In this document: positions 38,455 to 56,371 of the stretch, piece by piece
Layout: every line of letters begins with the position of its first letter
Position numbering within the stretch: position 1 is the first letter of the stretch
NCBI GenBank assembly: GCA_963727485.1
Contig: CAVSGM010000003.1
Location: 143,532 to 207,531, forward strand
Reading direction: 5' to 3'
Source: an uncultured delta proteobacterium
Lineage (GTDB): Bacteria > Myxococcota > Myxococcia > SLRQ01
Length of the DNA: 64,000 bases
Notes under the pieces: model-generated
The model's input: the letters and a program-made list of their open reading frames with translations, nothing else
Database searches by the model: none
What the model was told of the DNA's origin: nothing
Made by a program: the position numbers and the translations under genes

Positions 38455-39500
38455 GAGATGAACCCCTCGTCCTTGTGGCGATCGGCGCCCGCAGTGGCGA
38501 GGGTCTACCGCGCACCCTCCCTCGGCGCCGCACTGGCAGTGGCGCCTGAGCCGGCGCTGAAGACCTTCGCTCGCGAGGAGGGGCTCGCGGCGCTCCTTGG
38601 GCGCCGGTGGGGCGTGTGGGGGAACGATGTCCAGGCGAGCGTGGCCAACGCGCTGGTGGCCGAGCAGGCAACCCGCCGGGCAATCTGTGCCCTGGAGGAC
38701 GAAGGCATCCCGGTGGTGGTCCTCAAGGGTGTGGTGGCCGCGCGCCTCGGCTGGACGAACCGTTCCTGCGACCCCAGTCGGACATCGATCTGCTGGTGCT
38801 TCGTGCGGACGTGCGTCGCAGCATGGCGGTGCTCCACGACGGGGGCCTGACCACCACCGCTCCCCAGGAGCCCGACCCGTGGCTGCACCACCGGACCCTG
38901 CGGAGCCGTTCCGGTCCGCCCATCGAGCTGCACTATGCGCTCACCAACGACCTGGCGCTGACCCTGGACACGGCGTCGCTCCTCGAGGCCCGGGGGCACC
39001 TGGGAGAGGGGCCGTCGCGACTGCCCACCCTAGGGTTGGTGGAGACCTTCGTGTACCAGGTCCTCCACGCGGCGGTGCACCTCTGCGCGCGTCTGGCCTG
39101 GCTGGTGGACCTCGTCGGCCTGCTCGAGGCCGTTACCGCGGTTTGGGACCAAGTGCTGGCGACCGCCAACGCCTGGGGTGCCACCCTGGCCCTGCAGACG
39201 ACCCTCGGGGCTCTGGACACGCTGGTGGGTGCCGGGCACGTGCCGCCTGGCCGGTCCAGCGTACGACTCGGCGCCGGTCGGGTGGCGGCGCTGGAGGCCT
39301 ACGTGCTGGCACGGCGCCGTCTGCCGGGGTGGCTGTCCTGGCAGGTCGACCGGGCCGCGCGGCTCGGGCTCTCCGACCGGCTCGCCGGGCTGCTGCTGGG
39401 ATCTGCGAAGGCGCGAGGCAGCGCCTCGAGACGAGGCCAGGAGGCGCTGACCTGGGTTCGCGCCCGCGGCCAGGGCCCCCGCCAGGGCTGGCCAGGGTGA
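38455..39500 (+). CDS. PF14907-type uncharacterised nucleotidyltransferase; one single-base deletion near 38752
   Basis: ...ALEDEGIPVVVLKGVVAARLG... then in the adjacent frame ...DEPFLRPQSDIDLLVLRADVRRSMAVLHDGGL..., matching the family core. Confidence 0.55.
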
Positions 39501-39522
39501 GCAGGTCCCGAACGGAGCCCGA

Positions 39523-40878
39523 GTGACGGTCGCCGAGCACCGGCAGGGCCCTCCGGGGGGCCTCTCGATCCGTTCGCAATTTCGTGTGGGTTGCCGCCGG
39601 AAACCTAATCTACGGCGGCACCCAGTGGGGCCTGCTGGTTGCGATCGCGCGTGCGTTGAGCCCGGCGGCGGTCGGCCGCTATGCCCTCGGCCTCGCGTTC
39701 ACCGCACCGGTGTTTCTCTGCGGTCTTCAGCTGCGTGAGATCCTTGCGACCGACGCCAAGCGTGAGTACCCGTTTGCGGTCTACGCCCACCTCCGCTGGA
39801 CCTCGGTGCTCGCTTCGATAGTCCTCTCCTGGCTCCTGGTCCTCGCCCTCGGTTACGACCTCCAGATGCAGACCCTGGTGGTCCTCCTGGGGATCTCGAA
39901 GGCCGTGGGGTCGTTGAGCGAACTCCGGTATGGGCTCTTTCAGCTGCGGGAGCGCATGGGCCTCTCGTCCGCTCGCCGATACTTCGAGGCGTTCTCGACC
40001 TGGCCGCGGTGGTGGCCTCGGTGGTCGTGCTCCACAGCCTCGAGGTCGCCGTGGCCGGGCTGGCGGCCGCCTGGCTCATCGTCTACTTGGCCCATGACCT
40101 CCCCATCGCTCGCACTCTTCTCCATGCCGGCGAGGCTCCCGCCGCCGGCGCCGGTACGCGCCGTTCCAGGCTCTCGGACGCCCGGCCGCTTCTCCTGCGG
40201 GCGCTTCCCATGGGATTCGTGGTTCTGCTCATCTCGTTGAACGTGAGCGTCCCGCGGTACGCCATCGAGCACTGGTGGAATGCCCATGTGCTCGGTGTGT
40301 TCGCCGCCATGAACTACGTGTTCGTGGCGTTCGGGGGCGTGGTGATCGCGCTGGCCCAGGCTGTGACCCCGCGCTTGGCCCATATCATTCGGAGCGGCGA
40401 CCTGCCGAGTTCCGCAGGCTCCTGCTCCAGTCGCTGGGGGTTGGGGTGGCGGCCGGCGTCGGCACGGTGCTCGGTGTCGCGCTCCTCGGCCGGCCGGTGC
40501 TCAAGCTGGTGTACGGACCGGCCTTCGCTGGCCACCTCGACGTGTTTCTGGTCCTGGCCGTCGCGGGCGGCCTCGGATACGCTCGCACCTTTCTCGGGCA
40601 CGCGGTCACCGCGGCGCGCTGGTTCGCCATCCAGCCGCTGGTGGCCGTCTCCGGCCTCACCACCACCGTGGTTCTGGCGTGGCTGCTGGTCCCGCGCGGG
40701 GGCATGATGGGCGCCGCCCTGGCGGTGCTCGGAGGGTCTGTGGTGCAGACCATGGGCATGGGCAGTGTCGCCTCTGGGTATCTCGGGCGCTCTCCCGGGC
40801 ATCGATCGCGCAGCCCCGCCCCGAGGCATCGTGACCACCTCGGGTCCGGCCAGCGTCCGGATGCGGAAGGAACGATGA
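39523..40878 (+). CDS. wzx: Wzx-type polysaccharide flippase (MOP/PST family); at least three frameshifts, the first in a G6 run at ~39556
   Basis: After correction the N-terminus reads MTVAEHRQGPPGASRSVRNFVWVAAGNLIYGGTQWGLLVAIARALSPAAVGRYALGLAF. About 12 TM segments are spread over ORFs 39584.., 40009.. and 40275.. (...LLGISKAVGSLSELRYGLFQ...). Confidence 0.7.
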
Positions 40879-54077: not shown

Positions 54078-55010
54078 ATGCCACGCACCGTCATCCTCGG
54101 CGCCGCCGGGTTCCTCGGCTCCCACCTCGTCGATCGCTTCCTGGCCGATGGCCATGAGGTCGTCGCGGTGGACAACCTGGTCACCGGCACCCACGACAAC
54201 CTCGCCCACGTGCAGGACCACGAGCGGTTCACCTTCATCGAGCACAACATCACCCTGCCCATCGAGATCAGCGGGCCGGTGGACTTCGTGCTCAACTTCG
54301 CGTCGCCGGCGAGCCCCATCGACTACCTCAAGATCCCCATCCCGACCCTCAAGGTCGGGGCCCTGGGGACCCTCCACGGGCTCGGCTTCGCCCTGGCCAA
54401 GGGGGCGCGCTTCCTCCAGGCGTCCACCTCCGAGGTCTACGGCGACCCCCTGGAGCACCCGCAGAACGAGTCGTACAACGGCAACGTGGACCCCATCGGG
54501 CCCCGCGGCGTCTACGACGAGGGGAAGCGCTTCGGCGAGGCGCTGGTCATGGCGTACCACCGCGCCCACGGCCTCGACACCCGCATCGTGCGCATCTTCA
54601 ACACCTACGGGCCGCGCATGCGCCTCGACGACGGCCGGGTGGTCCCCGCCTTCGTCTCCCAGGCCCTGCGCGGCGAGGCGCTCACCGTCTTCGGCGACGG
54701 GCAGCAGACCCGCTCGTTCTGCTTCGTCGACGACCTGGTCGAGGGCATCGTCCGCCTCCTGAACTCCGAGGAGACCCTCCCCACCAACGTGGGGAACCCC
54801 GACGAGTACACCATCCTCGAGTTCGCCCAGGCGGTGCAGAAGGTCGCGGACACCGACCTCCCCATCACCCACCTGCCGCTCCCCGAGGGCGACCCCAAGG
54901 TCCGCCGGCCGGACATCGCCAAGGCCAAGAAGGTCCTGGGATGGCAGCCGACGACCACCCTCGAGGACGGCCTGCGCCAGACCCTCGAGTGGTACCGGCC
55001 GCGGGTCTGA
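54078..55010 (+). CDS. uxs: UDP-glucuronate decarboxylase (UDP-xylose synthase), SDR family; intact
   Basis: [42 protein letters not shown]...STSEVYGDP...[11 protein letters not shown] has the GxxGxxG and YxxxK motifs and the UXS pattern. Confidence 0.85.
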
Positions 55011-55026
55011 GCGCCGGCGACCCGCC

Positions 55027-56371
55027 TCAGGCCCGGCACAATCCGCGCCCGCCCCTCGATCCCCCGGGTCGCCCCGCGCGTGTCCACCACCAGCGCCGCC
55101 TTGCCACCACCCGGGCGTAGTCGATGCCGGTGTGGTCGGTGACGATGACCACCGCGTCGCTCGCCGGCGAGCGTCGCGTCGTCGAGCGCCACCGAGGCCA
55201 GGTCGCGAGATCGTGGTTGCGCATCGGCCGGGCCCGGGGCACGAAGGGGTCGTGGTAGCTCACCTCGGCGCCGCGCTCCTGCAGCAGCTCGATGACTGCG
55301 AACGCCGGCGACTCGCGCACGTCGTCGACGTCGCTTCTTGTACGCCAGCCCAGCACCAGGACCTTGGCGCCCTTGAGCGGCTTGCCGTCGCTCGTTGAGC
55401 GCCTCGGCCATCCGGTCGACCACGTACTCGCGGCATCGCCGATGTTGATCTCGCCGGCGAGCTCGATGAAGCGCGTGGTCAGCCCGAACTCGCGCGCCTT
55501 CCAGGTCAGGTAGAAGGGGTCGATGGGGATGCAGTGCCCGCCGAGGCCCGGGCCCGGGTAGAAGGGCATGAAGCCGAAGGGCTTGGTGGCCGCGGCGTCG
55601 ATGACCTCCCAGACGTCGATGCCCATCGCGGTCGCAGAGCACCTTCAGCTCGTTGACCAGGGCGATGTTCACCGCGCGGAAGATGTTCTCGAGGAGCTTG
55701 GCCATCTCCGCCACCCGGGTCGACGACACCGGGATCGACCTGCTCGAGGGCGCCGCGCCGTAGAGCGCCACGCGCCGCCTCGCTGGCAACGCCGTCGGTC
55801 AGCCCGCCGACCACCTTGGGGATGCGCCGGGTGGTGAAGTCCGGGTTGCCCGGGTCCTCGCGCTCGGGGCTGTAGGCCAGGATAGAAGTCGGCGCCCGGC
55901 CGTCAGCCCGCTGCCGGCCTCGAGGATCGGCAGGAGCACCTCGTCGGTGGTGCCCGGATAGGTGGTCGACTCCAGGACCACGAGCTGCCCGGCGCCGCAG
56001 GTGCGGCGCCATGGCTGCGCGCGGTGCCCTCGACGTAGCTCATGTCGGGCTCGCGGTGTCGGTCGAGCGGGCGTCGGCACGCAGAGCAAGAGGGCGTCGC
56101 AGCTCGCGGCACGCGGGCGAAGTCGGTGGTGGCCGAGAAGCGCTCCGCCGCGTCCAGCGCCTCGCGCACTCGCCGCGTCGCGGATGTGCTTGATGTAGCT
56201 CTCGCCGGCCTCGAGCTTCGTCGACCTTGGTCGGGTCGACGTCGAAGCCGACCACGCGGAAGCCCCGCGCCGGGCGAAGGCCAGCACCAGCGGCAGGCCC
56301 ACGTAGCCCAGCCCGACCACGCCGACCACCGCCTCCCGGCGGTCGATCCGCGCCAACAGCTCGCTCGCCAT
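55027..56371 (-). pseudogene. UDP-sugar dehydrogenase of the UDP-GlcNAc/ManNAc 6-dehydrogenase (WbpA/WecC-like) type, densely frameshifted
   Basis: MASELLARIDRREAVVGVVGLGYVGLPLVLAFARRG... is the NAD-binding segment. ...[28 protein letters not shown]... has the catalytic Cys. ...KGAKVLVLG...[31 protein letters not shown]... Segments alternate between frames every ~50-150 nt. Confidence 0.6.

Follow-up and report, generated by a model that had tools for sequence, protein, structure and literature searches.

The window (the whole stretch of 64,000 nucleotides that was analysed) carries a polysaccharide cluster in which frameshifts crowd many genes and spare some of their immediate neighbors, and the question is whether an acquired island is being inactivated or whether the assembled sequence is locally in error. 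Events were called by codon-usage Viterbi segmentation, frameshift-aware alignment to homologues (including those of the myxobacterial loci L004 and L005, described below), Pfam domains split across frames, tblastn, and DNA alignments.

Frame changes along the window

The dense in-gene frame changes reported in a preliminary description of this DNA proved genuine in the assembled sequence, with the Viterbi segmentation switching frames inside recognisable peptides across ~35.5-56.3 kb. Dense damage does occupy the interval first described, but its onset had wrongly been put at 38.4 kb, as CysD and the CysN-CysC fusion are broken from ~35.5 kb. The sulfate genes through the glycosyltransferases were the following:

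34894..35821, + strand: CysD (sulfate adenylyltransferase subunit 2), one +1 frameshift at ~35527; the PAPS_reduct domain crosses the junction
35836..37662, + strand: CysN-CysC fusion, +1 frameshifts at ~36134, 36954 and 37552; GTP_EFTU and GTP-eEF1A_C cross junctions; aligned to Azospirillum CysN
37881..38435, + strand: regulator-like ORF of 184 aa, apparently intact (single ORF, single Viterbi frame)
38450..39490, + strand: NTP_transf_5 nucleotidyltransferase, frameshift at ~38747; Pfam positions 88-242 in one frame only; alignment to L005 and L004 homologues
39575..40770, + strand: Wzx-like flippase, frame changes at ~39993 and 40403; Viterbi frames give contiguous membrane-protein peptides
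40922..41740, + strand: sulfotransferase, frame changes at ~41355 and 41543; Sulfotransfer_3 positions 1-142 and 160-216 in different frames; Viterbi
41776..43315, + strand: Wzy-like polymerase, at least six frame changes at imprecise positions; O-ag_pol_Wzy match to a fragment (E=8.6e-9); Viterbi
43338..46830, + strand: three GT4 glycosyltransferases, frame changes at ~43568, 43951, 44703, 45039, 45531, 46112, 46268 and 46696

Frameshift-aware alignment of CysD with its Azospirillum and Pseudomonas counterparts (66-71% identity) contained one single-base insertion. The Wzx-like call came from reading the peptides, which are those of a multi-pass membrane protein and had no Pfam match in the fragmented frames, while the GT4 genes were recognised from Glyco_trans_1_4 and Glycos_transf_1 fragments in differing frames, from Viterbi frames, and from tblastn with the L005 GT4 proteins. 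The next features contain the first of two very dense blocks:

46894..50841, + strand: high-density block 1 of putative errors, delimited by frameshift-aware alignments
49469..51339, + strand: PglF/CapD-like 4,6-dehydratase, 17-21 events at 49640-50841 (frameshift-aware alignment)
51391..53600, + strand: Wzc-type tyrosine autokinase/co-polymerase, single-base insertions at ~51622 and 53549
53632..54065, + strand: CBS-domain gene, two frameshifts, at ~53752 and ~53825

Block 1 takes in Bac_transf (6 events; 64% identical to L005_6458), a PglD-like acetyltransferase (at least 4), a DegT/PglE-like gene (9), and the first two thirds of PglF. A 26-mer singled out earlier in the PglE-like gene was found at 48293-48318, with its two surplus bases present. 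The final ~500 nt of PglF had no net frameshift, save for a short compensated out-of-frame stretch at ~50991-51000, and Wzc, whose homologues carry Wzz, GNVR, and AAA_31, was hit only twice, at codons ~74 and ~715. Beyond these lie the intact genes and the second dense block:

54078..55010, + strand: UXS (UDP-glucuronate decarboxylase-like), intact; 72% identity over its full length to L004_18546
55037..56371, - strand: WbpA-like UDP-N-acetyl-D-glucosamine dehydrogenase, 17 events; contains high-density block 2 of putative errors, at 55103-56268
56380..56688, - strand: Cys-rich small ORF, intact; small ORFs in L004 (48% identity) and L005 (40%) match it
56702..58012, - strand: Ugd (UDP-glucose 6-dehydrogenase), intact; 68% identity over its full length
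58168..60994, + strand: O-antigen-ligase (Wzy_C) and TPR protein, probable +1 frame change at ~59736

UXS, Ugd, and the Cys-rich ORF, which adjoins Ugd in related loci too, gave 0 events in frameshift-aware alignment, as their earlier description as intact had indicated. The same had been said of the ligase domain, and Wzy_C is indeed unbroken, but the gene probably changes frame in its low-complexity linker, judging from Viterbi frames, from Wzy_C and TPR matches on separate pieces, and from L004 and L005 homologues that are single proteins of 867-869 aa. In the left flank (35 kb), five events were confirmed in four genes, some of them housekeeping-type:

1..910, - strand: amino-acid permease, frameshift at ~592; AA_permease (profile 5-250) crosses the junction
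23609..26137, + strand: M16 peptidase, frameshift at ~24260; Peptidase_M16_C crosses the junction
28049..29913, + strand: asparagine-synthase-like (AsnB-like) gene, frameshifts at ~28175 and 28767; tblastn HSPs in differing frames, and frameshift-aware alignment
30975..31863, + strand: Fpg/Nei glycosylase, frameshift at ~31407; the H2TH domain crosses the junction

Blocks of damage and gene borders

The events were not uniformly distributed (dispersion index 3.0, p=3e-6), and the probability of at least three clean gaps of at least 1270 nt was 5e-6. Rates reached ~10.6/kb in 46.9-50.84 kb and ~14.6/kb in 55.10-56.27 kb, equivalent to ~1.2-1.6% indels per nt in these dense blocks, against ~0.9/kb in 50.84-55.10 kb and ~0.2/kb in the flanks, such that event density differed 10- to 70-fold between adjacent blocks within a few kb. 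The spacing of one frameshift per 50-300 bp claimed at first applied, at ~1 per 70-100 nt, to the two dense blocks only, and was ~1 per 300-700 nt in 35.5-46.8 kb. The non-uniformity also bears out part of the argument that intact genes would be improbable under uniform error, but the block around UXS has 0.94 events/kb, at which this gene would be intact with a probability of ~0.4.

The gene-selectivity proposed earlier mostly did not hold up, and the pattern appears to be block-wise instead. The first dense block ends at 50841, within PglF, leaving that gene two thirds dirty; the clean block that holds UXS begins at 53826, within the CBS gene, which is half dirty and half clean; and Wzc was hit near both ends around a clean interior of 1.9 kb. 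With these block edges inside genes, the apparent selectivity mostly dissolves. The ends of the WbpA block, unlike the edges in PglF (50841), Wzc (51622, 53549), and CBS (53826), match the limits of the gene within ~70-100 nt on both sides. Such a fit is somewhat unexpected under random read tiling. In addition, the heavily affected stretch overlaps a compositionally distinct island, with GC3 of 0.86-0.93 versus 0.97-0.98. Damage would coincide with low GC3 in the same way if selection on an acquired island were truly relaxed.

Corrected genes, indel spectrum, and alternatives to assembly error

Genuine pseudogenisation would mean that a horizontally acquired polysaccharide island is decaying, with true indels of one base accumulating in it and selection preserving UXS, Ugd, and a few other genes. 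The overlap with the lower-GC3 island speaks for it. So does the WbpA-like gene, in that its damage follows its limits so closely and that L004 has a GT2 in its place, with UXS on one side and the Cys-rich ORF on the other. We nevertheless consider it improbable. Selection cannot account for a Wzc gene that is frameshifted at both ends and spotless between, and housekeeping-type genes of the flank are frameshifted too. Moreover, once frames were corrected, the broken genes were full-length, collinear, and 64-72% identical to their homologues (WbpA 72%, DegT 68%, PglF 64%), similar to the intact UXS and Ugd, with the best homologues overall being 60-74% identical. GC3 in the corrected frames was 0.88-0.97, such that codon bias was kept, and there were 0-1 in-frame stops in ~1,600 corrected codons.

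To assess substitutions, the two dense stretches with the best sampling (PglF and WbpA) were compared with 120 homologues at near-invariant columns, defined by an invariance of 95% or more. The dense part of PglF deviated at 1 of 107 such columns and WbpA at 3 of 128, and the latter three are consecutive and thus form a short out-of-frame run. With that run set aside, 231 of 232 near-invariant residues were kept, although these 2.4 kb contain ~38 indels; ~8 changes would be expected if substitutions were as frequent as indels. The remark in the preliminary description that substitutions were few was therefore well founded. Natural decay would be expected to yield several-fold more substitutions than indels, and indels that arise spontaneously in bacteria tend to come from slippage and to favor deletion. 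Those observed here each involved one base, which could be A, C, G, or T, with both +1 and -1 events present, and leaned to insertion (insertion:deletion ~49:31 overall, a ratio that varies between sub-regions and points to no platform). A search for homopolymer enrichment found none, with 44% of events versus 48% of random positions having a run of three or more in the surrounding +/-8 nt, and DNA alignment to Azospirillum homologues placed lone surplus bases (A, C, G, or T) where the neighboring sequence is conserved and not repetitive, e.g., TCT[A]TCC at 55883. Local consensus error is favored over pseudogenisation because the process gives mostly indels and almost no substitutions.

Genuine pseudogene-rich regions and inactivated surface-polysaccharide loci do resemble the window in their clustered frameshifts and in being accessory, compositionally distinct polysaccharide loci. 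However, genes in genuine decay also pick up substitutions, nonsense codons, and larger deletions and lose their codon bias, while the damage here is indel-only, with up to 21 events per gene and invariant residues kept. The inactivation of an island, put forward initially as a second reading, is thus not supported, as the indels come without substitutions, real nonsense codons, or loss of GC3.

It is very improbable, again on the evidence of the sequence, that the indels are truly in the DNA, having been written by an unfamiliar local indel-only process or being tolerated via downstream correction of expression. If they were, specific myxobacterial polysaccharide genes would be massively frameshifted without substitutional decay. 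Confirmation of the indels by read data would be a remarkable result, but the sequence itself is strong evidence to the contrary. Still less credence is due to biological recoding, with expression rescued in the RNA or during translation, or to a locus-specific indel-writing process such as extreme phase variation. Events that are indel-only, dense, and locally confined, in frames that are perfectly coding once corrected, are what these would produce, but no repeat tract or homopolymer occurs at the sites, neither the inserted base nor any motif was consistent in the DNA alignments, +1 and -1 events are both present, and the same type of event is found at low density throughout the 64 kb. We know of no bacterial recoding or indel-writing system of this kind. 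Phase-variable capsule, LOS, and O-antigen genes, which vary by slipped-strand mispairing, are likewise frameshifted polysaccharide biosynthesis genes, but each of them relies on a single homopolymer or short-repeat tract, whereas the genes here are hit many times and outside repeats. Phase variation was rejected as a model given that no slippage-prone tract lies at the frameshift sites. Finally, the 72%-GC sequence has long open stretches in every frame and yields long spurious ORFs (e.g., 1,472 aa at 58123-62541) plus many overlapping ones, but the notion that frames were mis-tracked and no true frameshifts exist is scarcely tenable, and is refuted by homology-guided alignments, frame-split Pfam domains, and DNA alignments, each of which places explicit single-base indels within genes.

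Probable origin of the frameshifts and the encoded pathway

The dense frameshifts are, very probably, local consensus errors of a noisy assembly and not mutations. Localised sequencing or assembly error had been the reading favored from the outset, and it is backed by the indel-only damage, the retained GC3, the non-homopolymer spectrum, and the frameshifted flank genes; the homopolymer-prone chemistry suggested alongside it is not, as homopolymer enrichment is lacking. Single-base indel errors would then form a background of ~0.2/kb over the whole contig, rising to ~1-2.5/kb across 35.5-55 kb and peaking at 10-15/kb in the two dense blocks. The most likely cause would be that effective read depth or polishing fell off locally in an assembly of the noisy, long-read type. 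This could have arisen from few long reads tiled at low coverage, from strain-specific cassettes recruiting fewer reads in a mixed sample, or from uncorrected reads filling stretches between accurately assembled pieces. UXS and Ugd may be intact simply through their position in better-supported blocks.

Coverage-dependent, indel-driven gene fragmentation is documented for long-read assemblies (PMC9262707, PMC12007338). The indel errors of noisy assemblies, as characterised by IDEEL-type tests (PMC9262707) and Kastor (PMC12007338), resemble the present events in that single-base indels break conserved genes, at a level that depends on support, with contig-wide spread and full-length corrected proteins. 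The contrast between adjacent blocks is unusually sharp here, and typical Nanopore consensus errors are homopolymer-associated, unlike these. Homopolymer-type platform error (Nanopore, 454, Ion Torrent) was accordingly rejected, given the near-null frequency of runs and the lone bases in non-repeat contexts. The frameshifts serve as a data-quality warning and not as new biology: swings in error density as steep as these can mimic gene-selective inactivation, and inferences on gene content or 'island decay' drawn from the contig would be wrong. Annotation of the contig would call a run of pseudogenes and overlook an apparently complete cluster.

The window is genuine DNA of a high-GC Myxococcota-like organism with an ordinary Wzx/Wzy-dependent cluster, in which the Wzy polymerase, PCP/Wzc, the initiating phosphoglycosyl transferase (Bac_transf), and GT4 glycosyltransferases are all present. 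Its content and order match those of loci in myxobacterial MAGs (JARGFU010000012.1, JACPVI010000019.1), which are Wzx/Wzy-dependent and include Wzc and an amino-sugar branch of Pgl type (PglC/D/E/F). Bac_transf, DegT, the PglF-like gene, Wzc, UXS, the Cys-rich ORF, Ugd, and the Wzy_C-TPR ligase are common to these loci and the window, as are sulfotransferases and NTP_transf_5, and the product is probably a sulfated polysaccharide. The MAG loci (L004, L005) carry intact versions in similar order. The pathway that the window encodes most likely works in the organism.

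Frame changes in the polysaccharide cluster and its flanks

Between ~35.5 and 56.3 kb, the coding frame switched repeatedly within recognizable peptides, with agreement between a GC3 frame plot and the codon-usage Viterbi segmentation used for frame calling. A GC-only frame model was dropped, having called much of the island (the lower-GC3 polysaccharide stretch) non-coding, and the codon-usage model took over. Pfam searches on X-masked chunks of the three-frame translations found single domains split over frames, specifically Sulfotransfer_3 (positions 1-142 versus 160-216), and placed NTP_transf_5 positions 88-242 within one frame. 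Events, that is, net single-base frame changes (+1 or -1) inside a recognizable gene, were counted using a purpose-written frameshift-aware protein-to-DNA aligner, run with the closest homologues, or from domains crossing a junction. These approaches confirmed the within-gene frame changes reported in the preliminary description, and the 26-mer quoted there was placed at 48293-48318, with both extra bases present.

Events per gene (FA, frameshift-aware alignment; J, Pfam domain or homologue alignment crossing the junction)
WbpA-like UDP-N-acetyl-D-glucosamine dehydrogenase: 17 events, 55103-56268 (FA)
PglF/CapD-like gene: 17-21 events, 49640-50841 (FA)
DegT/PglE-like gene: 9 events, 48312-49052 (FA)
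Bac_transf gene: 6 events, 46939-47413 (FA)
Wzc, tyrosine autokinase/co-polymerase: 2 events, 51622 and 53549
CBS-domain gene: 2 events, ~53752 and 53825
UXS (UDP-glucuronate decarboxylase-like), Ugd (UDP-glucose 6-dehydrogenase) and the Cys-rich ORF: 0 events (FA)
CysD: 1 event, 35527 (J)
CysN-CysC fusion: 3 events, 36134, 36954 and 37552 (J)
AA_permease gene (flank): event at ~592 (domain crosses)
Peptidase_M16_C gene (flank): event at ~24260 (domain crosses)
Fpg H2TH gene (flank): event at ~31407 (domain crosses)
AsnB-like gene (flank): 2 events, 28175 and 28767
Ligase-TPR gene: probable event at ~59736

The intactness of UXS, Ugd and the Cys-rich ORF was thereby corroborated. The damage was wider than its earlier assigned start at 38.4 kb, reaching back through the CysN-CysC fusion to CysD, and the flanks were not clean either, with several broken genes and a background of ~0.2 events/kb, a frameshift load far above that of a healthy genome. 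Two runs of three to four consecutive departures from invariant residues, at 50991-51000 (GGEI to RRGD) and 55336-55342 (AYK to RTR), resemble pairs of indels that lie near each other and cancel out; because such pairs escape frame-based counting, all event counts are lower bounds.

Three further stretches, all on the reverse strand, were observed in the flanks:
32038-32604 (-): two adjoining coding segments in different frames, without a Pfam match, representing either a pair of small genes or one gene frameshifted at ~32349
20897-23483 (-): gene for a long, coiled-coil-like protein rich in Ala, Glu and Gln (80-82% GC; strong AT skew, -0.36 to -0.6), with a possible frame change at ~21844
12154-14939 (-): a large gene of ~2.8 kb in the GC-richest part of the window (82-84% GC)

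Indels, substitutions and sequence context

Once frame-corrected, the broken genes yielded full-length, collinear proteins, with identities to their homologues (WbpA 72%, PglF 64%, DegT 68%, Bac_transf 64%) that can be set beside those of UXS (72%), Ugd (68%) and Wzc (73%, grouped here with the intact genes despite its two events). GC3 in the corrected frames was 0.88-0.97, and ~0.98 in intact genes of the window, where GC averages 70-80%. At most one in-frame stop was present in ~1,600 corrected codons, at ~47225 within a garbled stretch that resembles an unresolved indel pair.

Among columns at least 95% invariant over 120 homologues, 1 of 107 deviated in the dense part of PglF and 3 of 128 in WbpA; the latter three were consecutive and thus reflect a brief loss of frame, not substitutions. 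The scarcity of substitutions noted previously was therefore borne out. Those 2.4 kb contained ~38 indels, and ~8 changes at invariant columns would be expected if substitutions had occurred at the indel rate. In spontaneous mutation and in real pseudogenes, substitutions typically outnumber indels several-fold, an excess that would predict dozens of such changes.

The indels were not enriched near homopolymers (44% of events versus 48% of random positions), so the homopolymer-prone chemistry suggested earlier was not substantiated. Moreover, when the WbpA-like gene was aligned as DNA to Azospirillum plasmid genes (~71% identical; 75% by BLAST), its extra bases were a lone A, C, G or T within conserved non-repeat strings. 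Net +1 and net -1 events stood at ~49:31 overall, with +1 strongly dominant in WbpA, CysD/N, Wzc and the flanks, and the 38.7-46.7 kb region rich in -1; since this balance differs between sub-regions, identifying the sequencing platform from the insertion:deletion ratio was rejected.

Block structure and probable origin of the frameshifts

Event density by block
46,894-50,841: 10.6 events per kb
50,842-55,102: 0.94 events per kb
55,103-56,268: 14.6 events per kb
56,269-58,012: 0 events per kb

The 35.5-46.8 kb region had ~1-2.5 events/kb. Events were non-uniform (dispersion index 3.0, p=3e-6), and in simulation the probability of three event-free gaps, each 1,270 nt or longer, was 5e-6. The uneven density described initially thus held, but its gene-selectivity largely did not: the first dense block ended two thirds along PglF, a clean block began within the CBS gene, and in Wzc events fell only at codons ~74 and ~715, around a spotless 1.9-kb interior. 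The sole exception was the WbpA block, which agreed with the limits of that gene to within ~100 nt. Nor was the integrity of UXS and Ugd improbable, as had been argued; at its own block's rate UXS would be intact with a probability of ~0.4, and Ugd lies in low-rate flank sequence, so the gene-selective look is largely a matter of block placement.

Judged from the sequence, the signature matches the consensus error of a noisy assembly, since it is indel-only and repeat-independent, with many events per gene and a low level in unrelated flank genes; it is best filed as a sequence-quality artefact, which upholds the technical origin first suspected. Consensus indel error in noisy assemblies is documented and coverage-dependent (PMC9262707, PMC12007338). 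For the sharp blocks, the best explanation would be that effective depth or polishing varied locally, whether through the tiling of reads where coverage was low, through cassettes specific to one strain of a mixed sample, or through gap-fill left unpolished, all three being candidates. Strain-specific cassettes gain some support from a syntenic myxobacterial MAG locus (L004), in which a GT2 occupies the UXS/Cys-rich ORF slot that holds the WbpA-like gene in the window. Illumina GC dropout was rejected, as the dense blocks have 69-73% GC and the 80+% GC flanks are cleaner.

Genuine pseudogenization of the locus was not supported: the expected substitutions and nonsense codons were missing, codon bias was kept, indel contexts were non-slippage, and the already-broken Wzc had a clean interior. 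Recoding or targeted indel mutagenesis had no positive support.

The polysaccharide locus and its relatives

In its biology the locus is ordinary, probably a polysaccharide cluster of the Wzx/Wzy-dependent type, encoding CysD and CysNC (PAPS supply), a sulfotransferase, three GT4 glycosyltransferases, a PglC/D/E/F-like amino-sugar branch, Wzc, UXS, the WbpA-like dehydrogenase, Ugd and a Wzy_C-TPR ligase. Because CysD, the CysN-CysC fusion and the sulfotransferase head the cluster (34894-41740), a sulfated polysaccharide is suggested. No tRNA or integration-site marks pointing to an island were seen.

The polysaccharide genes had their homologues chiefly in MAGs of Myxococcota or 'Deltaproteobacteria', and identity reached only 60-74%; the best protein matches from JGI and ENA were likewise only 60-74% identical, and the same species is therefore not among them. 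Exact-protein queries with UXS, Ugd and GlmS had no match, and neither the organism nor a near relative turned up in the collections searched. A genome-contig search with the Wzc protein matched only a distant Clostridium locus, and the contigs of its two closest long-contig homologues (P0002 and P0005) were without synteny to the window. Synteny was found instead through contigs of PglF homologues, in two myxobacterial MAG loci with intact genes (L004 and L005; contigs JARGFU010000012.1 and JACPVI010000019.1). Additionally, an Azospirillum oryzae plasmid (NZ_CP054615.1) carried sulfotransferase-CysD-CysN and, ~10 kb off, a WbpA homologue ~75% identical in DNA.

Two further ORFs were noted:
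56380-56688 (-): Cys-rich small ORF of ~90-100 aa, without a Pfam family; counterparts at 20191-20487 in L004 and 20894-21166 in L005
58123-62541 (+): 1,472-aa ORF, a high-GC composite

The Cys-rich ORF (40-48% identity) adjoined Ugd in the window and L004, and in the window, L004 and L005 alike it lay a short way upstream of the gene for the Wzy_C-TPR ligase. Within the 1,472-aa ORF, coding was in frame +0 until ~59736 (Wzy_C ligase domain) and then in +1 over the TPR region to 60994, a shift which indicates a probable frameshift in the Arg/Pro-rich linker of the ligase gene; another +1 segment spanned 61206-62343. At 59000-59300 (+), a proline-rich repeat, PGFPDRPGPPDPPGFPDRPAGPGRPAGPRPPP, was inserted in the Wzy_C ligase domain region.
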